From a virus (Duplodnaviria > Heunggongvirae > Uroviricota > Caudoviricetes): a DNA stretch of 13,152 nt. Both the position numbers and the translations under genes were made by a program. Shown here in pieces: positions 1-13,152 of this stretch (position 1 is its first letter; each line of letters begins with the position of its first letter). The notes below the pieces were generated by a model, which did no database searches, was not told where the DNA came from, and saw nothing but the letters and a program-made list of their open reading frames with translations. The DNA lies in the IMG/VR virus record IMGVR_UViG_2698536428_000004, positions 1 through 13,152 of that record; one strand, given 5' to 3'.

Positions 1-166
1 ACGTCATCGCGGTGAACGTACCGTCCTGGTTGGGGAACACGCCACATACCAGAGATTCGTTGTTGCCAAGATCGATAGTATCCATGCTGACCTCATTTCC
101 CCTTAACGCCGGGGTAGCGGAACAAAAACCTGCTGCATAGTTATTAAAGTCGAACCCTGCCATCAT
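1..166 (-). CDS. Partial CDS, 5' portion only (continues past the window start); hypothetical protein
   Basis: Open minus-strand frame from ATG at 166 (alternative ATG at 85 with GAGGT 5 nt upstream) running off the window edge with no stop; translation begins MMAGFDFNNYAAGFCSATPALRGNEVSMDTIDLGNNESLVCGVFPNQDGTFTAMT. Not in the ORF track because it is truncated. No family recognised. Confidence 0.3.
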   Translation of the reverse strand, partial: MMAGFDFNNYAAGFCSATPALRGNEVSMDTIDLGNNESLVCGVFPNQDGTFTAMT

Positions 167-325
167 GTTCTTACGCCTCGGGCTGGCTACTTAACCCCTG
201 ACCACTGCCTGGTAACTCGAAGTATTGCCTGGCGTTCTGTGGGGCGGGGTGGGTTGATGAAATAATGATGCACTTTTAAAGTTATGATGTCAACACTTAT
301 AAAGTTAGCTTTTGATCAATAAAAA

Positions 326-350
326 CCGCCTCGTGTGAAGCGGTTCTGCG
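326..350 (-). terminator. Rho-independent terminator downstream of the toxin gene
   Basis: On the minus strand, AACCGC-TTCACACGAG-GCGGTT hairpin followed by TTTTTATTG, immediately 3' of the toxin stop at 362. Confidence 0.5.
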
Positions 351-361
351 AAAAAAGAAGA

Positions 362-643
362 TTATCCAGGAAATTGTCGTCTGGAGTGGGTGACACTTAC
401 TATTTCAACACTCGAAGCGGCTACACGGTACAGAATGATATAGTTAGGATGAGCTACAATCTCACGCAAGCCAAACGCTCTGTCGCTTGATGGGTATAAG
501 TACGGATGTTCAGATAAAGCTAAAACACATGTCTCAATGCGAATCTTTAGCCTGCGTGCGGCATGGAGATTTTCTTTTGCAATATAGGCTACGATCTGAC
601 GTAAATCATCACGTGCAGAAGGTAGCCATAAAATGGGCAGCAT
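362..643 (-). CDS. Type II toxin, ParE/RelE superfamily
   Basis: 93 aa ORF (MLPILWLPSARDDLRQIVAYIAKE...IVSVTHSRR) with the layout of ParE/RelE plasmid-stabilisation toxins; its start overlaps the upstream antitoxin stop by 1 nt (ATGA), the classic antitoxin-then-toxin arrangement. Confidence 0.75.
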   Translation of the reverse strand: MLPILWLPSARDDLRQIVAYIAKENLHAARRLKIRIETCVLALSEHPYLYPSSDRAFGLREIVAHPNYIILYRVAASSVEIVSVTHSRRQFPG

Positions 644-834
644 TACACACTCCCGCTAGTCGCAGCAATTTGGGCAATGAGATTTTCCATTTCTGCCATT
701 ACATCATCATGAGGAATTGCAGGGCGCGGATCTGCAAGATTTGCAGCTACTTTTGCACGTAGCCATTCGTTGTAATTATTTTCTTGCTCAACGGTTTCAA
801 ACTCAGAAACCATCGGCGAAAGGGCAGTGTTCAT
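643..834 (-). CDS. Type II antitoxin (ParD/RHH-like), partner of the ParE/RelE toxin
   Basis: 63 aa when started at MNTALSPMVSEF; AGGAGG lies 5 nt upstream of this ATG (plus-strand cctcct at 842-847). The longer track ORF (to 897) has no RBS. Acidic C-terminus typical of antitoxins; overlaps the toxin start. Confidence 0.65.
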   Translation of the reverse strand: MNTALSPMVSEFETVEQENNYNEWLRAKVAANLADPRPAIPHDDVMAEMENLIAQIAATSGSV

Positions 835-863
835 AACATACCTCCTTTGGCTTATGATGTAGA

Positions 864-1271
864 CTATGCTCGGTGCCCTTTCTGGGCAGCGAGCCATCTT
901 GCAACAGTGCGCTCCATTGATTCTTTTTTGTCTTTCATGTCTTTAAGCATTTTTTCTTGATCTTCCTCTGGAAATGCTCCGAATGTTTGAAGCAGTTCCA
1001 TTTGCCTGGGGCCTATTTTCATAGTATCTGGCACCACAACCTGCTCTTCTTCGTTTGGCGGTAACATAAACCAATATGGGGGATAACCCGTTACTTCAGA
1101 AAGTTTATCAAGATTAGCTGTTGATGGACTTGTGATTCCGTGAACCCACTTTTGTACCGATTGCTGGGCAACACCAATCCTGCGGGCTAGTTCTGCCTGC
1201 TTAAGTCCTGTTTTTTCCAGTACCAATTTTATTCGGTACGTGGTTATTTCAAGGGTGGTCATTCGCTTCAT
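864..1271 (-). CDS. Prophage repressor, XRE-family HTH (DicA/CI-like), no S24 peptidase domain
   Basis: 135 aa; N-terminal HTH (LKQAELARRIGVAQQSVQKWVHG) matches XRE/Cro-CI DNA-binding domains; transcribed divergently from a Cro-like gene. Size and organisation resemble DicA of Qin-type prophages. Start may be ATG 1271 or 1262. Confidence 0.75.
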   Translation of the reverse strand: MKRMTTLEITTYRIKLVLEKTGLKQAELARRIGVAQQSVQKWVHGITSPSTANLDKLSEVTGYPPYWFMLPPNEEEQVVVPDTMKIGPRQMELLQTFGAFPEEDQEKMLKDMKDKKESMERTVARWLAAQKGHRA

Positions 1272-1322
1272 GCATTCATTTTACATAAAAAAAGTGTAAC
1301 TAGCACAATTAGCTTAAAGGTG

Positions 1323-1351
1323 TTGATAAACTAACTTTAAAAGTGTATAAA
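1323..1351 (+). promoter_or_regulatory. Candidate sigma-70 early promoter for the Cro-like gene, inside the divergent operator region
   Basis: TTGATA (1323-1328), 17 nt spacer, TATAAA (1346-1351), about 28 nt upstream of the ATG at 1379. The surrounding intergenic region (1272-1378) contains an inverted repeat TTAAAG-N15-CTTTAA and repeated AAGTGTA motifs that may be operator sites. Confidence 0.4.
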
Positions 1352-1378
1352 TCATGGTGATTCACTGGAGATAACGAT

Positions 1379-1645
1379 ATGCATGAATGTTTAAAAAATA
1401 AAATTCACCAAAGAGGGTTATCCCAAGCAGGTATTGCTCGTTTGATTGGATTACCGCAACAGGTTGTGTCTCGATGGGCTAATGGTCAGCAGGTCCCTGC
1501 ATCAAGGGTTCTGCAACTTTGTGAGATTATGGCGTGGGAGGTTACCCCCCACGAACTCCGACCTGATATTTATCCTAACCCAACAGACGGCTTGCCTGCT
1601 GAGTTTCAGACTAGCACACAGCCAGCGACGGGAGTTGATTCATGA
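1379..1645 (+). CDS. Cro-like HTH regulator (YdaS/DicC-like)
   Basis: 88 aa; GGAGA RBS upstream; HTH segment (LSQAGIARLIGLPQQVVSRWANGQ) and an ELRPDI motif recalled from YdaS-type Cro-like proteins; divergent from the repressor; stop overlaps the next gene (ATGA). Confidence 0.7.
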   Translation: MHECLKNKIHQRGLSQAGIARLIGLPQQVVSRWANGQQVPASRVLQLCEIMAWEVTPHELRPDIYPNPTDGLPAEFQTSTQPATGVDS

Positions 1646-2067
1646 AAATCAAGCATGAGCACATCCGCATGGCGATGAATGCCTGGGCATATCCTGACGG
1701 TGAGAAGGTGCCAGCTGCTGCTATTGCCAGAGCGTATTTTGAACTGGGGATGACATATCCCGAGTTGCACAACGACGACAGGCACAACGCGCTCTATCTC
1801 AACACCCAAAAGATTTTCCGTTGGCTGGATAAAGACACTCCTGATGCTGTTGAGAAAATTCAGGCATTGTTACCGGCGATCGAAAGGGCAATGCCACCTC
1901 CGCTGGTAGCCCGAATGCGCAGCCACAGTTCCGCTTATTTTCGGGAGCTGGTGGAGACGCAGGAACGGCTAGTGAAAGATATCGATGATTTCGTTGCATC
2001 AGCGATCGTTCTGTTCGACCAGATGAATCGTGGTGGTCCGGCGGGTAATTCCGTGGCTGTGCATTGA
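1642..2067 (+). CDS. YdaT-like protein (CII-like regulator, formerly annotated as a toxin)
   Basis: 141 aa starting MKIKHEH, translationally coupled to the Cro-like gene; size and position match YdaT of Rac-type prophages (from memory, not verified by search). Confidence 0.55.
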   Translation: MKIKHEHIRMAMNAWAYPDGEKVPAAAIARAYFELGMTYPELHNDDRHNALYLNTQKIFRWLDKDTPDAVEKIQALLPAIERAMPPPLVARMRSHSSAYFRELVETQERLVKDIDDFVASAIVLFDQMNRGGPAGNSVAVH

Positions 2068-2138
2068 CTGAAAATATTTATACCGGATCGCTTCCGGCAA
2101 TTCGTGAGTAAAAAGATTCGGTCTCAGAAGAGGTGAGT

Positions 2139-3179
2139 ATGGCTAATGCCTGGCTCAGATTATGGCATGACATGCCAAATGACCCTAAGTGGCGAACAAT
2201 TTCCAGGGTGTCAGGACAGCCAATCGCAACAGTGATGGCTGTGTATATCCACCTTCTGGTGAGCGCGTCACGAAATGTCACGACATGTCACGGCGTGTCA
2301 CTACGTGGTCACATTGATGTCACAACGGAAGATTTAGCAAGTGCACTTGATGTGACGGAAGAAGTAATTGATTCAATTTTGCAGGCGATGCAGGGGCGGG
2401 TGCTTGATGGAGATTTAATCACTGGATGGGAAAAACGCCAGGTAGCGAAAGAGGATAACGGCAACGTTTCGCAAACCGCGAAATCCCCGGCAGAGCGTAA
2501 GAGAGCACAACGCGAGAGGGAAAAATTACGAAAACAGAATGAGGGGTGTCACGATGAGTCACGCATATGTCACGACATGTCACTACGAGTCACGACAGAT
2601 AAAGATACAGATAAAGAATTAAACCCCACACATAACGCGCGCGTGCGCGAGAGTGCTCCGACCAGTGAATCGAACGGTACGCCGTTGCAGGCAGCGGAAC
2701 CTGATTACCAGGAAAGCCTGAGCGAACCCATCGGGAAGTTTCCGATGGCCGGTGGCTGGCATCCGTCGCCGGATTTTCGACGGCGGGCTGCACTGTGGGG
2801 AGTGGCTCTGCCGGAGCCTGAATTTACACCTGCTGAACTTGCCGCCTTCAGGGACTACTGGGCAGCTGAGGGGAAAGTTTTTACGCAGGTTCAGTGGGAG
2901 CAGAAATTCGCCCGTCACGTAAATCACGTCAGGGCGCAGGTTAAACCAGTCAGCAAGGGGGTGCGTCATGCAGCAGCACCAGGTGGCACCGCATCACGGG
3001 CAGTTCGGGAAATTCGGGCAGCACGTGAGCAGTGGGAACGTGAAAACGGATTTGTCAGCGACGGAAACGGCGTGGAAGCTGTGGGAGCTCATGGGGGAGG
3101 TTTATTCAAACCGCTGGACTCAGAAGAACGGGGCCGCACCTTCGAAGCTCTGGATTGCCCAGATTGGCGCGATGACTGA
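2139..3179 (+). CDS. Replication initiation protein (lambda O analogue; possibly DUF1376/YdaU-like)
   Basis: ATG at 2139 preceded by GAGGTG; 346 aa. Occupies the O position ahead of a P-like gene and contains two intragenic GTCAC iteron arrays plus an AT-rich tract, as in the lambda ori inside O. The 3' end is uncertain because the P-like frame overlaps from 2968. Confidence 0.55.
   Translation: MANAWLRLWHDMPNDPKWRTISRVSGQPIATVMAVYIHLLVSASRNVTTCHGVSLRGHIDVTTEDLASALDVTEEVIDSILQAMQGRVLDGDLITGWEKRQVAKEDNGNVSQTAKSPAERKRAQREREKLRKQNEGCHDESRICHDMSLRVTTDKDTDKELNPTHNARVRESAPTSESNGTPLQAAEPDYQESLSEPIGKFPMAGGWHPSPDFRRRAALWGVALPEPEFTPAELAAFRDYWAAEGKVFTQVQWEQKFARHVNHVRAQVKPVSKGVRHAAAPGGTASRAVREIRAAREQWERENGFVSDGNGVEAVGAHGGGLFKPLDSEERGRTFEALDCPDWRDD
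2267..2323 (+). repeat. Iteron array 1: six GTCAC-containing direct repeats at 10-11 bp spacing (candidate ori)
   Basis: GTCAC at 2267, 2277, 2287, 2297, 2308, 2319 (units such as GTCACGAAAT, GTCACGACAT, GTCACGGCGT); an inverted copy (TGTGAC) near 2352. Confidence 0.6.
2548..2625 (+). repeat. Iteron array 2: five GTCAC repeats followed by an AT-rich tract (candidate ori unwinding element)
   Basis: GTCAC at 2548, 2558, 2569, 2579, 2589; the unit GTCACGACAT is shared with array 1; followed by AGATAAAGATACAGATAAAGAATTAAA (2597-2623). Confidence 0.6.
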
Positions 3180-3633
3180 ACAGCAAATCAGGCTGGTCTG
3201 CCGTCAGTGCATGGACCGCTGCCGGGCGGGTGAAACGTGGCCCCCGGACCTGGCTGAGTTTGTTGCGCTGATTTCGGAGAGTGGGGCAAATCCATTTGGT
3301 CTTACGGTGGATGCCGTGATGGAAGAGTACCGGCGCTGGCGCAATGAATCCTGGCGGTACGACGGGAGTGATAAATACCCGTGGCCACAGCCTGTGCTGT
3401 ACCACATTTGCCTCGAGATGCGCACCAGAGGGATTGAACGTCAGATGACTGAAAGTGAGCTGAAACGACTTGCAGAACGACTGTTGACCAAATGGGCAAA
3501 GAATGTTGGTAACGGCATGAGTGTTCCGCCAGTGCGACGACAACTGGAAGGGCCAAAACACCCGCCAGGGCCAACGCCAATTGAGTTACTGAAACAGGAA
3601 TATGAGCGCCGGAAAGCGGCTGGTTTTGTCTGA
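2968..3633 (+). CDS. Replication protein P-like helicase loader
   Basis: 221 aa; ATG 2968 preceded by AAGGGGGTG; the segment LWIAQIGAMTEQQIRL...WPPDLAEFVALI...YPWPQP...ELKRLAERL parallels recalled lambda P (WVLAFRENGITTMEQV...PSPGQFVAWC...YPWKSN...ELRRKAADEL). Alternative starts at 3091 or 3172. Confidence 0.65.
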   Translation: MQQHQVAPHHGQFGKFGQHVSSGNVKTDLSATETAWKLWELMGEVYSNRWTQKNGAAPSKLWIAQIGAMTEQQIRLVCRQCMDRCRAGETWPPDLAEFVALISESGANPFGLTVDAVMEEYRRWRNESWRYDGSDKYPWPQPVLYHICLEMRTRGIERQMTESELKRLAERLLTKWAKNVGNGMSVPPVRRQLEGPKHPPGPTPIELLKQEYERRKAAGFV

Positions 3634-3666
3634 ATTTGAGAAATGATTTTGTCGGAGGAAATTTTA

Positions 3667-4380
3667 ATGGAAACCGTTTTTGACGCACTGAAAGCACTGA
3701 AAAGAGCCTCTTCACAGGAGGTGTCGGCCCGCCTTGGAATCAGCCGCGAAGATGCTGTCAACGAGCTGTGGAAGCTGAAACGCCGTGGTGAAGCAGATAA
3801 CAAGGGGTCGATGTGGTGGCTGACGATTGAGGCAACTGAAATGGTCACAAAAACCACTGCGGAGATGCTGATTAACTCAATTGAACAGCATGGTCCTCAG
3901 TCGGCTGACGAACTGGCGTTAATGTTCGGGATTACCTCCCGCCGGGCGAATTCAACGCTGGCAATGGCAATAAGCAAAGGTCGTCTGATTCGAGTAAATC
4001 AGAACGGTAAATTTCGTTACTGCCTGTCGGGCGATAATTTACCAGCAGAGCCGAAAGCTGCATCGGTAACGGAAACTGCTGGTAAAGCCTTTCCTCAGAC
4101 AGCAGGTGTTGCGTTACCAGTCCGGGAAGCGGAAACACAGGAAGAAATTAAAACTGAAAGTGTGGCGGTCACAGTGCAGTCACAGCCGTCGTTCACCAGA
4201 AAGCATCCGGATAGTCTGATTTTACCATCGCTGCATGTGGCTAACCGCGAACTGCGCCGGGCAAAAGGTCAGGTTCAGAAGTGGGAGCGTGTCTGCGCCG
4301 CGCTGCGGGAGCTGAACAAGCACCGGGATATTGTCCGACAGATTGTCGATTCCTCCAGTCGTATTGTGTCGGAAAAGTGA
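3667..4380 (+). CDS. Hypothetical prophage protein with two winged-helix-like modules
   Basis: ATG 3667 with GGAGGA 8 nt upstream; 237 aa; two HTH-like segments ([23 protein letters not shown] and [24 protein letters not shown]) and a charged, coiled-coil-like C-terminus. Confidence 0.55.
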
Positions 4381-4395
4381 TTGCCGGGGGCGCTT

Positions 4396-4899
4396 ATGGC
4401 AAAAGTATTTACACAAGAAGAGCGAGAAAAAATTAAAGGGCAGGTTGTTGAACTGGTACGCCGGAGTGGGCGCGAGACGTTACGGCAACTGGAAGCTAAA
4501 ACAGGTGCAACAAGATATCTGGTGAGCGTTCTCGCCAGAGAGCTGGTTGCCAGTGGTGATGTATACAACTCTGTCTACGGGTTATTTCCGTCTGAACAGG
4601 CTCGTAAAGACTGGCAAAACGCCCGCAAAAAACTTTCAAGGGAAAAGGCGAAGAAACCGGCTGTGGTTGATCCGGACCTTATCTGGTCATTACCAGACGG
4701 AGAAATACGCCGCTACGACAGGCGCCTGAACATAATCTGTCGCGAGTGCCGGAATAGTGAAGTTATGCAGCGAGTGCTGGCGTTTTATCAGGGGGTGGGG
4801 TCAGGAGGTGGTGCTGTGAGTGAAATTAGCTATCAGGCTTCAATTTCCGCTGGCATTCGCATCAAAGGAGAGGAGCATGGAAATAAAACCAGAAGATGA
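4396..4899 (+). CDS. Hypothetical protein, N-terminal winged-helix-like domain (possible paralogue of the preceding gene)
   Basis: ATG 4396 (track ORF starts at TTG 4381); 167 aa; N-terminus (GQVVELVRRSGRETLRQLEAKTGATRYLVSVLARELV) resembles the wH modules of the upstream protein; the C-terminal about 25 aa overlap the next gene and may be read-through. Confidence 0.45.
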   Translation: MAKVFTQEEREKIKGQVVELVRRSGRETLRQLEAKTGATRYLVSVLARELVASGDVYNSVYGLFPSEQARKDWQNARKKLSREKAKKPAVVDPDLIWSLPDGEIRRYDRRLNIICRECRNSEVMQRVLAFYQGVGSGGGAVSEISYQASISAGIRIKGEEHGNKTRR

Positions 4900-5233
4900 G
4901 TTAAGTAATATTGTTTTATTTCCGGTAAAAGAGGATGACCCACGTAATCAGGTTAATTTTCTTTATGAGCCATCGGAAAGACCATATTGTCATCACGCCT
5001 CTGTCCGGGTTGACGAAAAAGAGCGTCAGGTCCGCTGTAAAATCTGCGGTGCAGTTGTGGAGCCATTTGACTGGATGCCCTCTGTGGCGAAAAGAGAAAC
5101 CAGACTGGCAGATGATGTAAGGCTCTTGCGCCAGGAGGAACGGGAAAGGCGGAGAAATGTAGAAAAGCTAATTCAGATTGAGCGTAACGCGAAAGCGCGG
5201 ATACGCAGGGCGGCAAAATCAAGAACTGAATAA
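4877..5233 (+). CDS. Hypothetical protein with Cys/His zinc-ribbon-like motif and basic coiled-coil tail
   Basis: ATG 4877 preceded by AGGAGAGGAG; 118 aa; CHH...CKIC cluster then an R/E-rich helix (RLLRQEERERRRNVEKLIQIERNAKARIRRAAK). Confidence 0.55.
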   Translation: MEIKPEDELSNIVLFPVKEDDPRNQVNFLYEPSERPYCHHASVRVDEKERQVRCKICGAVVEPFDWMPSVAKRETRLADDVRLLRQEERERRRNVEKLIQIERNAKARIRRAAKSRTE

Positions 5234-5326
5234 TTAAATTTAGCACTGTTAAAAATTTAATCCTTAACCGGAGGGATTTCTGCACCCTCAGAACATCAGG
5301 AGGCCGTTCGAAATGGCGGTAGTGAA

Positions 5327-5509
5327 ATGCGAAAATTCAAAATAATTATTGAAACGGGAATAGCTGGTGGAGATTTTGAGGATGTATTCGAAGTAGATGA
5401 TGACGCAACACCTGATGAAATTCATGACGAAGCAAAAGAAATTTTCTTTAACTACTGCAATTACTCATACCACGAAATAAAAGATGAAGAGGAAGGACAA
5501 AATGGCTGA
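5327..5509 (+). CDS. Small acidic hypothetical protein (60 aa)
   Basis: ORF MRKFKIIIETGIAGGDFEDVFEVDDDATPDEIHDEAKE..., strongly D/E-rich; overlaps the next gene by 8 nt; weak own RBS, but a strong SD serves a 10-codon upstream ORF at 5313. Confidence 0.45.
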   Translation: MRKFKIIIETGIAGGDFEDVFEVDDDATPDEIHDEAKEIFFNYCNYSYHEIKDEEEGQNG

Positions 5510-5678
5510 TTTTGGTTCAACTAAATATAACGCCAGTTTTGAAGAATGGCATGAACTGTTAATGGATTATGCAGAGTTACGCGGTGGAAGTGCCGCTGAT
5601 GCTGAAGCATGGCGTGATGATTATGAAGCAGGGAAAACTCCGGTCGAAGCATATTGTGATGAGTGGGGCGATGAATGA
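5502..5678 (+). CDS. Small acidic hypothetical protein (58 aa)
   Basis: ATG 5502 preceded by GAGGAAGGA; MADFGSTKYNASFEEWHELLMDYAELRGGSAADAEAWRDDYEAGKTPVEAYCDEWGDE; stop overlaps the next start (ATGA). Confidence 0.5.
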   Translation: MADFGSTKYNASFEEWHELLMDYAELRGGSAADAEAWRDDYEAGKTPVEAYCDEWGDE

Positions 5679-6034
5679 GCGAGATTAATTATCAGGAAGG
5701 GCATGAAAAGGCAGGGCAGGCAAAACCAGTGGCATGGCGATATCGCTACGTGAAAAAAGGCGTTACAGACTTTCAGGGGAAGCAGTGGGCTGGTGACTGG
5801 AAATATGTCCAGACAAAAGAAGATTGTAACGACAGACCGAACTATGAAATTCAGGCGTTATTCACGGCCCCGCCAGCCCCGGTGACATCAGAAGGACTAG
5901 TTAAAGCCGTGTGCTTTTATGAACAGGTAAAGCGTGAGAATCCACCAGTCGAAACAGGTGCATGGAAAGATGCTGTTGACTGGGTACTCAAAGAGGCTTG
6001 CCAGGCTGTAAGCATTAGCAACAAAGGGGGGTGA
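5675..6034 (+). CDS. Hypothetical protein (119 aa)
   Basis: Translationally coupled ORF (ATGA overlap with the upstream gene); no recognisable motif. Confidence 0.5.
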   Translation: MSEINYQEGHEKAGQAKPVAWRYRYVKKGVTDFQGKQWAGDWKYVQTKEDCNDRPNYEIQALFTAPPAPVTSEGLVKAVCFYEQVKRENPPVETGAWKDAVDWVLKEACQAVSISNKGG

Positions 6035-6037
6035 GTA

Positions 6038-6214
6038 ATGCGTGTGGCATGTATCAGTTTGTTACCGTACCCGACTCGTTTTTTGGCTTCTGCGCTAATT
6101 GCAAAGCCGCGTGTCCTGATGGATGACAGCATCATCCCGACACCAAAGCGCCGCCATACCGGTATTGCAGCGGCACGACGAGCAGCAAAGAAACGCAGGA
6201 GAGCAAAACGATGA
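6038..6214 (+). CDS. Small hypothetical protein (58 aa): hydrophobic N-terminus, very basic C-terminus
   Basis: Not in the ORF track (<60 aa). ATG 6038 preceded by AAGGGGGGTGA; hand-translated as MRVACISLLPYPTRFLASALIAKPRVLMDDSIIPTPKRRHTGIAAARRAAKKRRRAKR; stop overlaps the next ATG (ATGA). Confidence 0.35.
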   Translation: MRVACISLLPYPTRFLASALIAKPRVLMDDSIIPTPKRRHTGIAAARRAAKKRRRAKR

Positions 6215-6405
6215 AAAACCGTAAAGCAAAAATTCTGTTAGCTCGCAGAAACGGTGTTGGTGTCTGGCGGTGGGTGAGGATTAGTAACAGACGGGTGAGG
6301 TTGACGGGGTGTTGCGGTGTTATGGGGCACAGTTGTTGCAAAAAGCCCAGCGCGGCGCAAAACCGCTGGAAAAACCACTGTTATCTGCGCACTAAAGGAG
6401 AGTGA
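6211..6405 (+). CDS. Small basic Cys-rich hypothetical ORF (64 aa); coding status uncertain
   Basis: ATG 6211 preceded by AGGAGA and coupled to neighbours, but the DNA is G/T-rich with GGGTGAGG repeats, so it may be regulatory DNA rather than coding. Confidence 0.3.
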   Translation: MKNRKAKILLARRNGVGVWRWVRISNRRVRLTGCCGVMGHSCCKKPSAAQNRWKNHCYLRTKGE

Positions 6406-6406
6406 G

Positions 6407-6922
6407 ATGGCGTTAACACACCGCGAACTCTGTCAGATTGCGTACAAGTTCCTTAAGCGCAACGGGTTCAAGGTTTGCTTTCATGACCGCTTTATAGCTG
6501 TAACCAGTACCGGAGAACAGCCAGATGCTATGGGATTCAGAAATTCAGCATCATGCCTGATAGAGGCGAAGTGTTCTCGTGCTGACTTGTTGGCAGATAG
6601 AAAAAAGCGTTTCCGTAAAAATCCCTCTCTTGGCATGGGCGACTGGAGATTCTTTATTAGTGAGCCGGGAATTATTTCAATTGAGGATTTACCACCTGGC
6701 TGGGGATTACTTCACGTTGTTAACGGAAGAGTACGGAAAGTACATGGGTGGCCCAAGGGTAATTGCTGTTGGGGTGATCCTGACGATAAGCCATTTACTG
6801 GAAATAAGCAGGTTGAATGCGATTACATGTTGTCTGCATTAAGGCGCATGGAGTTGAGGGGACACCTTAATGAAATATATGACGGTGTAATCGTTAATAA
6901 GCAAGAAGGAAGCGCGGCATGA
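6407..6922 (+). CDS. Putative PD-(D/E)xK-type nuclease (VRR-NUC/MmcB-like), hypothetical
   Basis: ATG 6407 preceded by AAGGAGA; 171 aa; motif GEQPDAMGF...[11 protein letters not shown] matches the D...(D/E)xK core of restriction-endonuclease-fold nucleases. Assignment is by motif only. Confidence 0.5.
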
Positions 6923-7263
6923 CCACTTTTACCAGAGAGCAGTTAATAGCTCACGCAGAGGAGACTATTGAAGCACAGAGACTGTGCATACCGGGCACAA
7001 TCGACCATGACATCATCCGCACATATAAGATGGATATTGCTGTTCTGGAAATCGCACTGGCATCGCTGGCAGCAGAGCCAGCCGGTAAATTGCATGAATA
7101 CAAACCAGTGGGACATCAGCGTCTGGTCGACGAGTTAACCATGCTGGTAAAGCAGTTAACCTGGCAACTGAGGAAAACGAAGCCGGACTGTAAATTGCCG
7201 GGTAAGGCGATGGACTACCTGAAGCGAAACGGACTGATAAGCGCAGAGGATGTTTTACGATGA
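6919..7263 (+). CDS. Hypothetical protein (114 aa)
   Basis: ORF with ATGA overlap to the upstream gene; no motif recognised. Confidence 0.5.
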
Positions 7264-7343
7264 CCTGGCCTGAGGCATTCACAACGGTAGGGATCGCAAT
7301 GGCGGTGGCGCTGGTGGTGTATTCGATTTGTCGCTGGGGATAA
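7260..7343 (+). CDS. Candidate 27-aa single-pass membrane peptide
   Basis: Not in the ORF track. ATG 7260 overlaps the upstream stop (ATGA); AGAGGA 8 nt upstream; hand-translated as [27 protein letters not shown] with a hydrophobic core. Confidence 0.3.
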
Positions 7344-7350
7344 AAACGAT

Positions 7351-7378
7351 TTGCGGGGAAAGGATAGTTAAGTAGAAT
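7351..7378 (+). promoter_or_regulatory. Candidate hok mRNA promoter
   Basis: TTGCGG (7351-7356), 16 nt spacer, TAGAAT (7373-7378); the predicted 5' end near 7381-7385 coincides with the upstream complementary box of the hok mRNA. Confidence 0.35.
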
Positions 7379-7435
7379 TGCTGCGGGTGCTTGAGGCTAT
7401 CTGTCTCAGGCATGAATACCAAAAGGCAGATAGAG

Positions 7436-7515
7436 AAAAGCCCCAGTTAACATTGCGCGTCCGGCAAGACGCTTAACATTAATCTGAGGCCATATCTATG
7501 CTCTACACACGTAGG
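7436..7515 (-). ncRNA. sok: Candidate Sok-like antisense RNA (approximate boundaries)
   Basis: By analogy with hok/sok loci the antisense RNA lies opposite the hok leader. The minus strand shows a possible -35/-10 (TTGCCT, 17 nt, TAACCT; plus coordinates about 7551-7523) and a hairpin GCGTC-TTGCCG-GACGC (plus coordinates about 7459-7474). Ends are not defined by sequence alone. Confidence 0.3.
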
Positions 7516-7554
7516 TTAGCCTCTTACGTGCCGAAAGGCAAGGAGAAGCAGGCT

Positions 7555-7710
7555 ATGAAGCAGCAAAAGGCGATGCTAATCGCCCTTATCGTCATCTGTT
7601 TAACCGTCATAGTGACGGCACTGGTAACGAGGAAAGACCTCTGCGAGGTACGAATCCGAACCGGCCAGACGGAGGTCGCTGTCTTCACAGTCTACGAACC
7701 TGAGGAGTAA
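7555..7710 (+). CDS. hok: Hok/Gef-family type I toxin (51 aa membrane peptide)
   Basis: MKQQKAMLIALIVICLTVIVTALVTRKDLCEVRIRTGQTEVAVFTVYEPEE closely parallels recalled Hok ([52 protein letters not shown]); AAGGAGA RBS; the track ORF 7498-7710 is an in-frame 5' extension. Confidence 0.85.
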   Translation: MKQQKAMLIALIVICLTVIVTALVTRKDLCEVRIRTGQTEVAVFTVYEPEE

Positions 7711-7778
7711 GAGACCAGGCGGGGGAGAAATCTCCCGCCACCTCTGATGTGTCAGGCATCCTCAACGCACCCGCGCTT

Positions 7779-7806
7779 AACCCGCTTCGTCGGGTTTTGT
7801 TTTTTC
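7779..7806 (+). terminator. Rho-independent terminator of the hok transcript
   Basis: AACCCG-CTTCGT-CGGGTT hairpin followed by TTGTTTTTT. Confidence 0.6.
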
Positions 7807-7877
7807 CTGGCATTCTGGTTTACAATTCGCATGCCAGCCTGAACAACTGGCACCTGCTGCGCCAGCAGAGACAACCG

Positions 7878-8156
7878 ATGGCGCACGATACCAAATTATA
7901 CAATTCTGATAATTCAGCCGTCTTTGCCAGCAGGCACGGGCGGCGTTCTCATGCATTCAAATCTGACTGGTTCCAGCACGCCCCATGCACTGAAGAACAG
8001 GCCGAATGGCTGATTCAGAACTACCGCAGACGTGGGTATGAGTTTAGGAAAACCCTCAGCCTCGATTATCGTCACTGGATAATCTCCGTCAGGCTTCCTT
8101 ACTCTGAACGCCCACCGCGTCCGTCCCGCACATTCCAGCAACGCATCTGGAGGTAA
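7878..8156 (+). CDS. Hypothetical protein (92 aa); position corresponds to rem of Qin-type prophages
   Basis: Internal ATG at 7878 chosen because the upstream part of the track ORF (from 7749) overlaps the hok terminator; weak RBS; family not recognised from sequence. Confidence 0.4.
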   Translation: MAHDTKLYNSDNSAVFASRHGRRSHAFKSDWFQHAPCTEEQAEWLIQNYRRRGYEFRKTLSLDYRHWIISVRLPYSERPPRPSRTFQQRIWR

Positions 8157-8157
8157 C

Positions 8158-9207
8158 GTGCGGGTATTACTTCGACCTGTTCTGGTTCCGGAACTCGGGC
8201 TGGTGGTCCTTAAGCCAGGCCGTGAATCCATGCCTATATTCCACAATACCCGGGTACTGGTGGAGCCGGAACCGAAAAGCATGCGTAATCTGCCGTCCGG
8301 GGTCGTTCCTGCCGTTCGCCAGCCGCTGGTGGAAGACAAAACATTGCTGCCGTTTTTCAGTAACGCACGGGTAATTCGTGCTGCTGGTGGTGCTGGTGCA
8401 TTGTCTGACTGGCTGTTGCGCCATATTAAATCCTGCCAGTGGCCACACGGCGATTATCATCACAGCGAAACCGTTATTCACCGTTATGGTACCGGCGCAA
8501 TGGTGTTGTGCTGGCACTGCGACAACCAGCTGCGTGACCAGACATCCGAATCACTCGAGCAACTTGCTCATCAAAACTTGTCAGCATGGATGATTGACGT
8601 CATACGCCATGCAATGAATGGCACGCAGGAGCGGGAATTATCGCTGGCTGAATTATCCTGGTGGGCGGTCTGCAATCAGGTGGCGGACGCGCTACCAGAG
8701 GCAGCATTACGTCGTTCTCTGGGGTTACGTGCGGAAAAAATTCGCTCAGTATACCGCGAGAGCGACATCGTGCCGGGAGAGCAGACCGCCACCAGCATCC
8801 TGAAACAGCGCACAAAAAATCTTGCGCCGCTGCCTCACGCCCACCAGCAACAGAACTCACCACAGGAAAAGACGGTGGTCAGCATTGCCGTTGATCCTGA
8901 GTCTCCGGAATCTTTCATGAAACGACCTAAACGTCGCCGCTGGGTTAACGAGAAATACAAACGCTGGGTGAAGACACAGCCGTGTGCGTGTTGTGGTAAG
9001 CCAGCCGACGATCCCCATCACCTGATTGGTCATGGTCAGGGCGGAATGGGGACAAAATCTCACGATATTTTCACGCTACCGCTGTGTCGGGAGCATCACA
9101 ACGAGCTTCATGCGGATCCGCTGGCGTTCGAAGAAAAGCATGGTTCTCAGGTTGATTTAATTTTTCGTTTTCTTGATCACGCCTTTGCAACTGGCGTGCT
9201 TGGGTAA
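8158..9207 (+). CDS. DUF968-family protein with C-terminal HNH-like Cys/His motif (YdfU/Ref-like)
   Basis: 349 aa from GTG 8158 (GGAGG upstream); C-terminal CACCGKPADDPHHLIGHGQGG...LCREHHNELH is an HNH/zinc-binding signature; length and position (hok, small ORF, this gene, then antiterminator) mirror ydfU of Qin. Confidence 0.65.
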   Translation: MRVLLRPVLVPELGLVVLKPGRESMPIFHNTRVLVEPEPKSMRNLPSGVVPAVRQPLVEDKTLLPFFSNARVIRAAGGAGALSDWLLRHIKSCQWPHGDYHHSETVIHRYGTGAMVLCWHCDNQLRDQTSESLEQLAHQNLSAWMIDVIRHAMNGTQERELSLAELSWWAVCNQVADALPEAALRRSLGLRAEKIRSVYRESDIVPGEQTATSILKQRTKNLAPLPHAHQQQNSPQEKTVVSIAVDPESPESFMKRPKRRRWVNEKYKRWVKTQPCACCGKPADDPHHLIGHGQGGMGTKSHDIFTLPLCREHHNELHADPLAFEEKHGSQVDLIFRFLDHAFATGVLG

Positions 9208-9219
9208 AAGAGGTGACTG

Positions 9220-9579
9220 ATGCTCATAGATTTGGTTTTACCTTACCCGCCGACGGTGAACACTTACTGGCGACGCCGTGGCAGCACATATTTTGTATCA
9301 AAAGCCGGGGAGCGTTATCGCCGGGCAGTGGCGCTTATTGTTCGCCAGCAGCGCTTGAAATTAAGCCTGTCCGGACGGTTGGCAATAAAAATTATTGCAG
9401 AACCACCGGATAAGCGCCGCCGTGACCTGGACAATATTCTGAAAGCACCGCTGGATGCGCTTACGCATGCGGGGTTGTTAATGGACGATGAGCAGTTTGA
9501 TGAAATCAATATTGTACGTGGTCAGCTTGTTCTTGGTGGTCGGCTGGGTGTGAAGATTTACAAAATTGAGAGTGAGTGA
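9220..9579 (+). CDS. rusA: Crossover junction endodeoxyribonuclease RusA (Holliday junction resolvase)
   Basis: 119 aa; AAGAGGTGA RBS; LPYPPTVNTYWRR...PDKRRRDLDNILKAPLDALTHAGLLMDDEQ parallels E. coli RusA (LPWPPSNNRYYRH...[30 protein letters not shown]). Confidence 0.85.
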   Translation: MLIDLVLPYPPTVNTYWRRRGSTYFVSKAGERYRRAVALIVRQQRLKLSLSGRLAIKIIAEPPDKRRRDLDNILKAPLDALTHAGLLMDDEQFDEINIVRGQLVLGGRLGVKIYKIESE

Positions 9580-10148
9580 GCGTAAATATGATATATCCGG
9601 AAATTACAGGCAAAAGCGGCGAACATTTACGCCTGAACACGCTGGAAGCAGTCTGGATCCAGGGGAAATTACGGATGTGGGGGCGGTGGTCGTATATCGG
9701 TGGGGGTAAATCCGGAAATATGTTTAACCGGTTACTGGTTTCGAAAAAGCTGACGAAAACAGCAGTTAATGAGGTTTTACGCAGAATGAAGAAATCCGGG
9801 CTGGAAAAACCGGAACTTGAGGCATTTTTTCGGGATATGACCAGAGGGAAGCAGAAGAGCTGGTTGTCACATTGTACAGACACAGAGGCGTTGATTATTG
9901 ATCGCGTTATCAGTGAGGTGCTTGGGGAATATCCCGGACTAATCAATATTCTCCGGCAAAGGTACGAAGGACGGGGAATGAGCAAACTGAAAATGGCCGA
10001 AAGGTTAAATGCAGATCATCCTGAGTGGACGTTGGTTACGTGCAGACGCCGAATTGATCAGTGGTTGGGGATATCTGAATTTATGTTACATGCCCCCATG
10101 CGTATGGCTTTTGTTACAGAGAAAAAAATGTTGCAAACTGATCAATAA
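9576..10148 (+). CDS. Probable late-gene antiterminator (Q-like), assigned mainly by position
   Basis: 190 aa ORF immediately after rusA (start GTG 9576 or ATG 9588) and immediately before a short region with a strong intrinsic terminator, the position lambdoid phages give to Q; the family was not confirmed by a motif I can name. Confidence 0.4.
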   Translation: MSVNMIYPEITGKSGEHLRLNTLEAVWIQGKLRMWGRWSYIGGGKSGNMFNRLLVSKKLTKTAVNEVLRRMKKSGLEKPELEAFFRDMTRGKQKSWLSHCTDTEALIIDRVISEVLGEYPGLINILRQRYEGRGMSKLKMAERLNADHPEWTLVTCRRRIDQWLGISEFMLHAPMRMAFVTEKKMLQTDQ

Positions 10149-10220
10149 ACTGCTTCAATCCGTATAAGCTTCGCAAGGCTGTATCGCGAGGCGAAATGCA
10201 AGTTTTTTTCGCACAAGGAA

Positions 10221-10243
10221 GCCACCGGAAGGTGGTTTTTTTG
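10221..10243 (+). terminator. Rho-independent terminator (candidate tR-prime-like, Q-antiterminated)
   Basis: GCCACC-GGAA-GGTGG hairpin followed by TTTTTTT, about 75 nt after the Q-like stop; a second T7 run at 10203-10209 lies just upstream. Confidence 0.55.
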
Positions 10244-10365
10244 TGTCCGTAATATACAGCAGCGCAATAAATTCGCTGGTGGTTATTAATACCGTTCTTT
10301 CAGCTTGCTGGCTTTTTCGACAAGAGTTATTGGTGTGTCACGTTAACCGGAAAAGGGAAAAAGAC

Positions 10366-10563
10366 ATGCTGAAACAGCAGGATATGACCGAAACCGCCAG
10401 AGTGGTGTTTAATGAATTAAGCGTCACCGAACCGGCGACAGTCGGGGAGATTGCACAGAATACGTACCTTTCACGCGAACGCTGTCAGTTAATACTGACC
10501 CAGCTTGTTATGGCTGGGCTGGCAGACTATCAGTTCGGTTGTTACAGACGCCTTCAGTCCTGA
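10366..10563 (+). CDS. Small hypothetical protein (65 aa), winged-helix-like
   Basis: ATG 10366 preceded by a purine-rich tract (AAAGGGAAAAAGA); MLKQQDMTETARVVFNELSVTEPATVGEIAQNTYLSRERCQLILTQLVMAGLADY...; a strong terminator overlaps its stop. Confidence 0.4.
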   Translation: MLKQQDMTETARVVFNELSVTEPATVGEIAQNTYLSRERCQLILTQLVMAGLADYQFGCYRRLQS

Positions 10564-10576
10564 AGGCTTTTTTATT
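10550..10576 (+). terminator. Rho-independent terminator
   Basis: GCCTTCAG-TC-CTGAAGGC perfect inverted repeat followed by TTTTTTATTT; the stop codon of the upstream small ORF lies inside the stem. Confidence 0.55.
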
Positions 10577-11131
10577 TGTGGTAAATGGGCGGCTGATGGG
10601 TGTGGTGGTTGTTGCTTTCCCGTTGCTGAAAAAGAAAGCATCAGGCGATTAGCAGGGTATCAGTTACCCGTTGAAATTTTTAAATACCTCACAATTCAGG
10701 CGGTTGACTGTTGTCTGGTTTGCGGGGAGTTTGTTAAAAGAAACTGGCATGGTGAATCCCCCTGTGCGGAGGGGCAATCAGCAACTGGTGTTTTGTCACC
10801 GACCCTTATCCTTTCTGTGCGGGTTCAGGTGCTGATACTGAACTCACCGGGAGGCAACCGGCACCATGCAATGGCACATAGCGCCACTCTCCAGCCCCTC
10901 TCCGGAGGGGCTTTCTTGTGGGCAAAAAAAAGCCTGAGTGGGTTCGGGCAACAGCATGAGATATACATTTTTATAATCGAATGGATTTTAACCAGAATTC
11001 ATAAGGCTGCGCAACTGCGCGGTCTTTTTCGAATTGCGGGCTGTCGTCTCCCTTCTGCCATTGTCCTGTAACTTCCGGACTTCAGCCCGCTCCTTATTTT
11101 ACTCACAATATTATCCCGGCCGGGAGGATTC

Positions 11132-13120
11132 ATGGCATTTAAACACTATGATGTGGTCAGGGCGGCATCGCCGTCAGACCTTGCGGATGCGCTTGCTCAA
11201 AAAATTCGTGAAGGATGGCAACCATACGGCGGGCCGTTTTCTTCGTATACGGATGATGGCGCAGCACTTATTCAGGCGATTGTCGCAGAAGGTGATGTCA
11301 CCACACCTGTGGTGGTGAAGCCGTCGGATGGAGAAGGCACAGTTATCAGCACCACCAGCGAACCGGAGTATTACTTTGTTGTTGTTCTGGCGGGGCAGTC
11401 AAACTCAATGTCTTTTGGTGAAGGGCTGCCGCTGCCGGAGACATATGACCGTCCGGACCCGCGTATTAAACAGCTGGCGCGTCGCAGTACGGTGACGCCG
11501 GGTGGTGCCGCCTGTAAATATAACGACATCATTCCGGCAGACCACTGTCTGCATGATGTGCAGGATATGAGTAACCTGAATCATCCTCATGCAGACCTGA
11601 GTAAGGGACAGTACGGTTGTGTGGGGCATGCTCTGCATGTTGCCAAAAAGCTGCTGCCGTTTATGCCTGCGAATGCGGGTATCCTTCTTGTTCCATGTGG
11701 CCGTGGCGATTCGGGATTTACTGCGGGGGCCGAGGGGGCGTTTAACGAAGCGTCGGGAGCGACCGCAGGCTCGTCCCTGTGGGGGGCGGATAAACCGCTG
11801 TATCATGACCTGGTCAGCAGAACCCGTGCGGCCCTGAAGAAAAATCCGAAGAACGTGCTGTTATCAGTGATCTGGATGCAGGGAGAAAAAGATGTCAGTT
11901 CGGGGAGACATGCAGAACACAATGCGCTTTTCCTTGCCATGGTAAATCAGTTCCGTACGGAACTGGCAGATGTGGCAGAGCAGTGTACTGGCGGGACAAC
12001 GGCCAGCGTCCCGTGGATTTGCGGTGATACCACGTACTACTGGAAGGAAAGGTATGCAGTGCCGTATGAGGCGGTTTACGGTGGGTATAAAGGAAAAGCT
12101 GCGCAGAATATTCACTTTGTGCCGTTGATGACGGATGAGCATGGTGTGAATGTGCCGACAAACGAGCCGTCAGAAGATCCGGACATTATCCCGGCGGGAT
12201 ACTATGGCGCTGCGTCACGCACTGCCAGTAACTGGACGGCAGCCGATCGTAAAACGCACTTCAGTTCATGGGCGCGAAGAGGCCTTGTTTCAGACCGCCT
12301 GGCAGGTGCCATTTTGCAGTACGCCGGGCGGACATTATCGTTCCTTACCGGGCAGAGCGCACCGCAGTCGGGTGGTACAACGCCTGTCAGTCCGGGGACA
12401 CCGGATGTTGAGAAACCGCAGGATGGCGGTGTTGCTGGTACTGGTCATGATGAGGCCGTGAGCAGTACCAGGACGGTGGCTGAATATGATGCGAACAGTG
12501 GAAATGGTGCATTGACAGAGCAGCAGTGGGGCGCTTCCGGCGGCAAAGGCACTGTGACTGATGACGGTGGACGGAAAGCGCTGCGACTGGAAAAACAGCC
12601 CGGTAAACTGACGTCCTGGAAAATGTTCCGTACTATTGCAGTGGAGGAGGCAAAAAATCTTCTCAGCAAGGGGGGGGAAATTGCCGTACGGTTCAAAATT
12701 CCGGATGGAAGCGAGCTGGTGAACGGACAGTTTGTCTTTGGTATCTACTGGCCGGTGTCGCAGTGGGCGTCAGGCGCGACAGCAAACAGTATGCTGGCAT
12801 CATTCTTCCTTCAGACGGATACATCAAATCTTAATCTGATGCACCAGAAGGGCTCCTCGAATGCACAACTGGGTACATTTGGTACGTTTGACCATAACTG
12901 GCATACGGTTGTTTTCCGCTTTGCGGGAAATAACAGCGAAAGAGTTGTTCCGGTGATTGATGGTGCAGAGCAGACGGCATTTGACCTTGTGATGTGGACA
13001 AATGATGGCTTTACAGCAGATACGCTGACGCTGACAGATATCACGGGGGCAAAAGCGACGTATCCGGTACTGCTTGATACGGTCACAGTCAAAGTTAACG
13101 AAAACCGGGAATCAGCATAA
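11132..13120 (+). CDS. nanS: Prophage sialate O-acetylesterase (NanS-p type; DUF1737 N-terminus plus SASA/SGNH esterase domain)
   Basis: 662 aa; GGGAGGA RBS; N-terminus MAFKHYDVVRAASPSDLADAL...; esterase signature VVLAGQSNSM (GQSN catalytic-serine motif); location downstream of the Q/terminator region matches the nanS-p genes of EHEC lambdoid prophages. Confidence 0.75.
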   Translation: MAFKHYDVVRAASPSDLADALAQKIREGWQPYGGPFSSYTDDGAALIQAIVAEGDVTTPVVVKPSDGEGTVISTTSEPEYYFVVVLAGQSNSMSFGEGLPLPETYDRPDPRIKQLARRSTVTPGGAACKYNDIIPADHCLHDVQDMSNLNHPHADLSKGQYGCVGHALHVAKKLLPFMPANAGILLVPCGRGDSGFTAGAEGAFNEASGATAGSSLWGADKPLYHDLVSRTRAALKKNPKNVLLSVIWMQGEKDVSSGRHAEHNALFLAMVNQFRTELADVAEQCTGGTTASVPWICGDTTYYWKERYAVPYEAVYGGYKGKAAQNIHFVPLMTDEHGVNVPTNEPSEDPDIIPAGYYGAASRTASNWTAADRKTHFSSWARRGLVSDRLAGAILQYAGRTLSFLTGQSAPQSGGTTPVSPGTPDVEKPQDGGVAGTGHDEAVSSTRTVAEYDANSGNGALTEQQWGASGGKGTVTDDGGRKALRLEKQPGKLTSWKMFRTIAVEEAKNLLSKGGEIAVRFKIPDGSELVNGQFVFGIYWPVSQWASGATANSMLASFFLQTDTSNLNLMHQKGSSNAQLGTFGTFDHNWHTVVFRFAGNNSERVVPVIDGAEQTAFDLVMWTNDGFTADTLTLTDITGAKATYPVLLDTVTVKVNENRESA

Positions 13121-13152
13121 CCGGCAAAAAAAACCGCCAGCTGGCCTGAAAC

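Follow-up and report, generated by a model that had tools for sequence, protein, structure and literature searches.

Why three genes lie so tightly packed in an Escherichia coli prophage, and whether they work together, is the question raised by positions 3667 to 5233 of IMG/VR virus record IMGVR_UViG_2698536428_000004 (Caudoviricetes). The window, by which we mean the whole stretch of DNA that was analyzed (13,152 nucleotides, positions 1 to 13,152 of that record), is the early-right (PR) region of an E. coli lambdoid prophage of the Rac/Stx (Shiga toxin) type. A preliminary description had taken the three genes for one module and had matched none of them to a family. We find instead that each belongs to a family (DUF1627 for gene 1, DUF977 and PHROG 142 for gene 2, and PHROG 1621 for gene 3). 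Moreover, we put at roughly 70% the probability that the interval is a recombination mosaic of two or three independent accessory cassettes in the PR operon and not one functional unit. The positions, spacing, and overlap described earlier are sound: open reading frames (ORFs) on the plus strand were found at exactly 3667 to 4380, 4396 to 4899, and 4877 to 5233, and the boundaries drawn by the Prokaryotic Genome Annotation Pipeline (PGAP) are identical in an E. coli prophage with 96.7% identity. Genes 1 and 2 are separated by 15 nucleotides, and genes 2 and 3 overlap by 23 nucleotides (4877 to 4899). The genes are as follows.

3667..4380, plus strand: gene 1, a DUF1627/YdaW-family protein of 237 residues (PF07789, phrog_630).
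4396..4797, plus strand: the core of gene 2, a Ren homologue (DUF977/LygF), residues 1 to 134 (PF06163, phrog_142).
4877..5233, plus strand: gene 3, a zinc-ribbon and coiled-coil protein of 118 residues (PHROG 1621, by profile match).

The three genes could be a cooperating module for host takeover, anti-defense, or defense, for example a complex of two DNA-binding proteins with a zinc-ribbon partner. Tight packing on one strand, with a short gap and an overlap, is what such a module might look like, and the whole 1.7-kb block was found in 117 of 5,426 complete E. coli genomes. Gene content across genomes nonetheless argues otherwise. Three samples were searched: 50,697 phage genome records, the complete E. 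coli genomes, and 75 IMG/VR contigs chosen for gene 3 from the best 80 loci only. Among the phage records, genes 1 and 2 were present in 24 each and gene 3 in 15. Genes 1 and 2 occurred together in about 13, always adjacent and with gene 1 first, and genes 2 and 3 in four, but genes 1 and 3 were never found together and no record carried all three. The complete E. coli genomes contained gene 1 in 2,745 cases, gene 2 in 4,060, and gene 3 in 1,679. On the contigs chosen for gene 3, gene 2 was upstream in about 66 and gene 1 in about 31. Alleles are also mixed, as at locus L074, where a gene 1 of 99.6% identity accompanies a gene 2 of 57.9%. The three genes assort independently.

Gene 3 also has other homes. 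E. coli phages carry it after an ea22-like gene with neither gene 1 nor gene 2 nearby. In Kluyvera, Erwinia, Photorhabdus, and Pantoea (loci L008 to L014), a gene 3 homologue closes the nin region, following NinG, RusA, or DUF968. It is directly upstream of Q in five of the six loci from other genera, where Q belongs to either of two unrelated families (PF06323 or PF06530), and no relative of gene 1 or gene 2 was found beside it in those loci. Because genes 1 and 3 never meet in phage records, alleles are freely shuffled, and gene 3 resides elsewhere by Q or ea22, we conclude that the interval is not a functional unit. Thus, neither the three-gene module nor its conservation as a unit across related prophages is borne out.

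If the genes are separate, the overlap of genes 2 and 3 needs another source, and the DNA points to ea22.

4801..4899, plus strand: an internally deleted ea22-like gene, fused to gene 2 as its residues 141 to 167 (from DNA alignment and relatives).

Most gene 2 relatives end in AFYQGNFQEVVL, and their TGA stop corresponds to window positions 4817 to 4819. A single additional base just 5' of this point, present in the window and in a few other loci, keeps the frame open for 27 more codons, VSEISYQASISAGIRIKGEEHGNKTRR. The Ea22 protein of lambda starts VSEINSQ and ends AGIRIKGE, and the 27-codon tail consists of the two ends of an ea22-type gene. When the DNA was aligned, window positions 4801 to 4838 corresponded to the ribosome-binding site and first codons of an Ea22-like gene, and positions 4848 to 4905 corresponded to the 3' end of an Ea22-like gene and the start of gene 3. 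The stump retains the ribosome-binding site AGGAGG (4803 to 4808) and a GTG at 4816, together with about 8 codons from the N-terminal end of the gene and about 17 from the C-terminal end. Full-length Ea22-like ORFs in other prophages and in the Stx2a phage ArgO145 end in AGIRIKGEEHGNKTRG and have the same 23-nucleotide overlap with the start of gene 3. The annotated 167-residue gene 2 product ("DUF977 family protein") is therefore a Ren-like core fused in frame to an ea22 stump, and gene 3 arrived attached to that stump. Likewise, the overlap of genes 2 and 3 is a recombination scar left by the old junction of ea22 and gene 3. Inherited in this way, the overlap provides no evidence for a functional link between genes 2 and 3. 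In most relatives, we note, the stump stands as an ORF of its own, 27 codons long, that matches the short families phrog_19884 and phrog_37408. We also note that the stretch of about 85 nucleotides upstream of the gene 3 ATG (4816 to 4900) is almost 100% identical across loci L003 to L094, the flanks of which differ. A strong Shine-Dalgarno sequence, AAAGGAGAGGAGC, precedes that ATG at 4877.

What lies downstream fits the same origin. Gene 3 belongs with the downstream accessory block rather than with genes 1 and 2, and it probably arrived in company with the DUF7167 gene and the small genes beyond it. The same block is also present in the early-left ea22 region of ArgO145. In the window, positions 5327 to 6034 hold the DUF7167 gene (5327 to 5509), a 64-residue ORF, and a 119-residue ORF that starts MSEINYQ, an Ea22-type N terminus, and their order matches that of the early-left ea22 region of ArgO145. 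The whole block appears to have moved from the early-left (PL) operon to the PR operon.

How the genes are expressed also bears on a defensive role. Promoter and terminator matches between 3400 and 5600 did not exceed chance, and no RNA families were found within the three-gene interval. Because no promoter or terminator signal above chance separates them, genes 1 to 3 are probably read through from PR as delayed-early genes. A defense role would require expression from the repressed prophage, for which there is no promoter. Moreover, PADLOC-DB returned nothing for gene 2, gene 3, or five downstream genes and returned one weak match for gene 1, to SWIM_XIII (E = 7e-5), over the second winged helix and linker. 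A search of the proteins against NCBIfam gave no informative matches, and no link between genes 1 to 3 and a known defense system was found. Proteins in which gene 3 is fused to DUF1133, DUF977, DUF1627, or Ea22 were considered as signs of a functional link and set aside, as each is a single deletion chimera joined mid-domain. One published result does favor a module of this kind: in an overexpression screen, a fragment of K-12 ydaW, a gene 1 relative, came out as a blocker of the retron-Sen2 toxin RcaT (bioRxiv 10.1101/2020.06.22.160242), which we treat as no more than a lead. On balance, a three-gene module for takeover, anti-defense, or defense seems very improbable. The earlier suggestion that the position is one for takeover and anti-defense genes survives in part: it finds no support in PADLOC beyond the weak gene 1 match, but gene 2 is a homologue of the exclusion-escape protein Ren.

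What gene 2 does can be proposed from homology. Its core comprises an N-terminal winged helix, a basic insert, and the C-terminal motif NIICRECRxSEVMQRVLAFYQG. Residues 1 to 133 match Pfam DUF977 (PF06163; 95.9 bits against a gathering cutoff of 22.1, E = 2.7e-27), and residues 136 to 167 fall outside that domain. Gene 2 also matches phrog_142, "Ren-like exclusion protein" (E = 1.2e-44), for which LygF is the name in phage records, and lambda Ren falls in phrog_142 too (E = 1.6e-41). When the gene 2 family was aligned to lambda Ren (96 residues) with hhalign, residues 6 to 93 of Ren were covered with a probability of 95% and an E value of 3.9e-8. The order of genes is O, P, and ren in lambda and O-like, P-like, gene 1, and gene 2 in the window, and gene 2 lies directly 3' of a replication gene in many relatives. 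Because PHROG 142 is shared, the alignment covers the whole of Ren, and the position after O and P is the same, we take gene 2 to be the counterpart of lambda ren in this prophage. Both proteins have the N-terminal winged helix and a C-terminal ECRxSxxMxRVLAxY, and both are encoded in the PR operon. Between these conserved parts, gene 2 has an additional basic segment, about 35 residues long, that Ren lacks, and in the window it also has the 27-residue tail derived from ea22. The window also differs from lambda in having gene 1 between P and gene 2. The gene 2 product is 87% identical to that of Rac phage.

Ren lets lambda escape Rex exclusion, and the PHROG name is in accord with this. The literature likewise treats Ren as a Rex-exclusion escape protein (PMC8614690) that is nonessential (PMC10695390). 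In yeast two-hybrid assays, Ren interacted with RexB (PMC3224144), and Rex proteins made two-hybrid contacts with O and with Ren, the gene for which was called "likely involved in DNA replication" (bioRxiv 10.1101/2021.04.19.439022). By homology, gene 2 would be a dispensable early protein that keeps Rex-type (RexAB) exclusion from blocking the growth of its own phage, probably by contacting Rex and replication proteins, and protection against such exclusion is its most likely role. Our literature search turned up no recent study of how phage Ren works, and "LygF" retrieved almost only unrelated papers. DUF977 was mentioned in passing, as a winged helix fused to Fic domains (PMC2686095), and sequence searches of the PDB found no solved structure for gene 2. 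These searches covered all three proteins and two family profiles, and for none of the three families did they yield a solved member.

Several observations weigh against separate cassettes and against a Ren-like gene 2. The samples are biased, both by the choice of the IMG/VR loci and by the heavy over-representation of E. coli. The adjacency and order of genes 1 and 2 are kept wherever both are present, even at identities of 43% and 71%, and some cooperation between them may exist. Lambda Ren did not match Pfam DUF977 at an E value of 0.01 or better, and BLASTP aligned gene 2 to Ren in the C-terminal motif only. Functional equivalence of gene 2 and Ren is thus plausible but unproven, and homology to Ren supplies gene 2 with a functional label rather than a mechanism. 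Finally, the window contains no rexAB genes and hence no Rex-type target there for an anti-Rex role.

How gene 1 fits beside a Ren homologue is a separate question. Residues 72 to 226 match Pfam DUF1627 (PF07789; 280.3 bits against a gathering cutoff of 28.1, E = 4.8e-84), and the protein matches phrog_630 (E = 2e-113). It is 74% identical to the ydaW product of Rac phage, E. coli proteins 100% identical to it are annotated "DUF1627 domain-containing protein," and 37 of 38 aligned relatives also match DUF1627. An AlphaFold2 model, built on a 66-sequence alignment, and the family profile divide the protein into four parts, with model confidence given as pLDDT (predicted local distance difference test).

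3667..3831, plus strand: first winged helix, residues 1 to 55 (pLDDT 88 to 94; phrog_633).
3850..4032, plus strand: second winged helix, residues 62 to 122 (pLDDT 79 to 89).
4042..4161, plus strand: disordered P/E/A-rich linker, residues 126 to 165 (pLDDT below 50).
4231..4374, plus strand: conserved long C-terminal helix, residues 189 to 236 (pLDDT 93 to 97).

The first part is modeled as a helix, strand, helix, helix, and beta-hairpin wing and is matched by phrog_633, "transcriptional regulator" (E = 8.5e-8). The linker is low in complexity and varies in length across the family, and the C-terminal helix has the consensus EIRRTKxxLxxLExLRxAxRxxxKH, in which R197 is invariant or nearly so. 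This architecture of two winged helices, a low-complexity linker, and a C-terminal helix is kept in 38 representatives, down to about 20% identity. The two winged-helix modules described earlier for gene 1 were recovered with pLDDT of about 90 and about 85, and the best Foldseek matches in the PDB were tandem winged-helix proteins, namely DIP2311 (5e-5) and ScpB (3e-4), followed by SelB-C and ESCRT-II. The matches of ScpB, the SelB C terminus, and ESCRT-II to the N-terminal half (E = 5e-5 to 5e-3) have TM-scores of 0.2 to 0.4 and identities of 12 to 19% and lack the linker and C-terminal helix, and so they indicate resemblance of fold class only. PDB sequence searches for gene 1 likewise found generic winged helices only. 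With the family profile, the second winged helix matched the solved winged helices of ADAR1 Z-alpha/Z-beta (7.6e-5), AspA (2.8e-4), and ArsR/MarR proteins. ADAR1 was the best such match and ZBP1 Z-alpha also appeared (3e-3), in what is probably a generic winged-helix resemblance.

Similar N-terminal segments had been proposed for genes 1 and 2, and the likeness holds at the profile level for one module: hhalign relates the second winged helix of gene 1 to that of gene 2 (E = 1e-4, probability 56%), and PHROG 142 also matches gene 1 at residues 58 to 118 (E = 3e-6). The first winged helix, in contrast, is weakly similar to the two others (hhalign E of about 0.01), and BLASTP found no similarity between the winged-helix segments of the two proteins. 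From its predicted fold, gene 1 would be a tandem winged-helix protein that dimerizes through its C-terminal helix and binds nucleic acid, and it is probably a dimeric DNA-binding protein. DUF1627 is small and confined to the Enterobacterales (148 representatives when 1.84 billion proteins are clustered at 50%), and the literature mentions it in passing, for example as a synteny marker near Pas small RNAs (sRNAs).

Known relatives place gene 1 in context. As in the window, the Rac prophage has DUF1627 (ydaW) and then DUF977 (lygF) directly after the replication genes. Rac differs in its loader, which is of the DnaC type (ydaV) and takes the place of the P-like protein of the window, and in having no gene 3 after lygF. 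In K-12, ydaW presumably persists in truncated form. The gp05 protein of the Stx phage phi24B (vb_24B_3c) was modeled with an AspA-like winged helix, a proline-rich linker, and a coiled coil (PMC8614690). It resembles gene 1 in architecture class, and AspA is also among the best PDB matches of the gene 1 profile, but one winged helix is described and gp05 is encoded in the exo-xis region.

Where DUF1627 genes lie raises the possibility that genes 1 and 2 are accessory replication factors, acting at or near the phage origin or remodeling the O/P-DnaB complex and tuning replication rather than countering exclusion. DUF1627 genes are found just 3' of the replication module across Enterobacterales prophages, whichever replication type is present, such that the position is kept beside three unrelated module types. 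In Rac-like loci they follow a DnaC-type loader, and in Hafnia and Serratia they lie just after other types of module, with one small gene between and with unrelated neighbors. The small genes 5' of DUF1627 in Hafnia, Serratia, and Pantoea were tested and are not Ren-like. In lambda, ren follows P, the contacts of Rex with O and Ren and the proposed involvement of ren in replication noted above point the same way, and proteins that act on DNA or chromosomes, such as ScpB, typically have tandem winged helices. The fixed place of gene 1 is thus compatible with a replication-linked role, without proving it. Independence from the type of helicase loader, however, argues against a specific partner in the replication module, one or both genes are missing from many lambdoid phages, and lambda can do without ren. 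Moreover, where lambdoid phages share a gene order, the cause is often modular recombination rather than function. A replication role for the pair therefore seems unlikely, and we prefer separate cassettes, one of which carries a Ren homologue.

What gene 3 might do must be read from its own features. It matches phrog_1621, to which no function is assigned, from residue 1 to residue 117 (E = 2.3e-54; profile positions 1 to 120 of 134). We found 145 homologues, and all of those with a named organism are from Enterobacterales.

4988..5047, plus strand: zinc ribbon CxH-x13-CxxC, residues 38 to 57, with invariant ligands.
5063..5227, plus strand: single long basic helix, residues 63 to 117, with the almost invariant LRxEExxRRxNIEKLIQIERNAKARIR.

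A CHH...CxxC zinc ribbon with a basic coiled-coil tail had been described earlier, and it stands with one correction: C38, H40, C54, and C57 are invariant across 33 homologues and the helix is basic, but H39 is not conserved. The AlphaFold2 model has beta-hairpins at residues 43 to 61 and then one 55-residue helix from 63 to 117, with pLDDT above 90 over residues 80 to 110, and the helix segment contains 17 K/R versus 9 D/E by sequence. A conserved N-terminal peptide, TETExELSNVVxFP, precedes the ribbon. Across the 1,679 E. coli genomes, gene 3 is almost invariant in nucleotide sequence, and its identity is at least 90% in all 1,701 E. coli records that carry it. With its zinc ribbon, its conserved peptide at the N terminus, and its invariant basic helix, gene 3 is probably an adaptor protein. 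It may form a coiled-coil dimer that carries the ribbon and the N-terminal peptide and that binds a conserved partner from the host or the phage, much as the small exo-xis regulators do.

Such an adaptor might act in transcription, given the recurrent position by Q and a subthreshold match to the TFIIB-type ribbon. Like small exo-xis proteins such as Orf73/TraR, gene 3 could modulate transcription by binding RNA polymerase or the Q antiterminator and so affect late-gene timing or the choice between lysis and lysogeny. The Pfam family Zn_Ribbon_TF (TFIIB-type, PF08271) matched gene 3 with 23.2 bits and an E value of 4.9e-5, relatives recur upstream of Q of two different families, and the extreme conservation of the helix suggests a conserved target. 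The other home, beside ea22, is in the exo-xis region, genes of which affect lysogenization (PMC7093339, PMC3824215). Yet the ribbon match is below the Pfam cutoff of 29, and the ligand set is CxH...CxxC versus the usual four cysteines of a TFIIB-type ribbon. Fold searches returned generic coiled coils only, and the gene 3 profile matched no PDB sequence at an E value of 10 or less. Adjacency to Q may instead mean no more than that insertions are tolerated where the nin region ends, and homology to Ea8.5 was not detectable. We consider transcriptional modulation by gene 3 to be quite unlikely. A long shot, finally, is that one of two genes has a specific role not described before, either gene 3 as a new zinc-ribbon/coiled-coil regulator that binds RNA polymerase or Q and so sets the timing of late transcription or tilts the balance of lysis and lysogeny, or full-length YdaW as a genuine anti-defense protein that blocks retron toxins such as RcaT. 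If true, a very common E. coli prophage gene family would gain a function.

Lambda Ea8.5 deserves separate mention as a comparison. Ea8.5, like gene 3 in its ea22-linked home, occupies the slot directly downstream of ea22, as transcription runs, and is a small zinc-binding early protein, and the two share a local resemblance, C-x-H-H...V-x-V-[DN]-E. Gene 3 was considered as an Ea8.5 homologue on account of the slot and the CxHH..V.V.E resemblance, and this was ruled out by an hhalign probability of 4.9% (E = 0.008). Ea8.5, for which a homologue has been solved (PDB 2M7A), is a homeodomain/zinc-finger hybrid, whereas a different fold is predicted for gene 3.

The rest of the window supports the assignment of genes 1 to 3 as nonstructural early genes between the replication genes and the nin/accessory region.

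Left end of the window, minus strand: ParE/PaaA2 toxin-antitoxin pair and HTH_3 repressor.
2133 to 3179: O-like initiator with a DnaT domain.
2968 to 3633: P-like helicase loader.
3' of gene 3: small accessory genes, a hok/sok locus, DUF968, RusA, and a DUF1133/Q-like antiterminator, followed by an sRNA and a sialate O-acetylesterase.

The ParE toxin (PF05016) and PaaA2-type antitoxin (PF21217), at 362 to 897 on the minus strand, adjoin the prophage repressor. Between 1379 and 2067, the cro position is taken by a YdaS-like protein and the cII position by a YdaT-like protein, and the immunity region is thus of the Rac type and not the lambda type. As listed, the O-like and P-like ORFs overlap by 212 nucleotides. 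For a close relative, PGAP places the start of P far later, leaving an overlap of 8 nucleotides, and phrog_15931 covers both proteins, such that the start of P in the window is uncertain. The hok/sok type I toxin-antitoxin locus spans 7385 to 7710 (Rfam sok, 116 bits; Hok/Gef ORF at 7558 to 7710). Downstream of the DUF1133/Q-like gene (9576 to 10148) is an sRNA of the STnc100 family (10718 to 10923; Rfam, 140.6 bits), and after it comes a 662-residue sialate O-acetylesterase (11132 to 13120) with SASA, DUF1737, and DUF6645 domains. ARAGORN found no tRNA genes in the window, and no Shiga toxin-like gene was seen among the called ORFs of the window, although no search aimed at Shiga toxin was made.

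All three families were already catalogued, and the interval is ordinary phage mosaicism and not a new system. The annotation of one gene changes, as the 167-residue "DUF977 family protein" is better described as a Ren-like protein plus an ea22 stump, and the zinc-ribbon gene 3 is to be counted in the ea22/exo-xis gene pool. We caution that when genes of a phage early operon are closely spaced or overlap, this can be a recombination scar passed on by descent rather than a sign of functional linkage. The families themselves are common: about 75% of complete E. coli genomes have the Ren-like gene, about 50% have DUF1627, and about 31% have the zinc-ribbon gene. They are found in Stx-converting phages as well. 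Ultimately, assigning them functions would annotate thousands of prophage genes.

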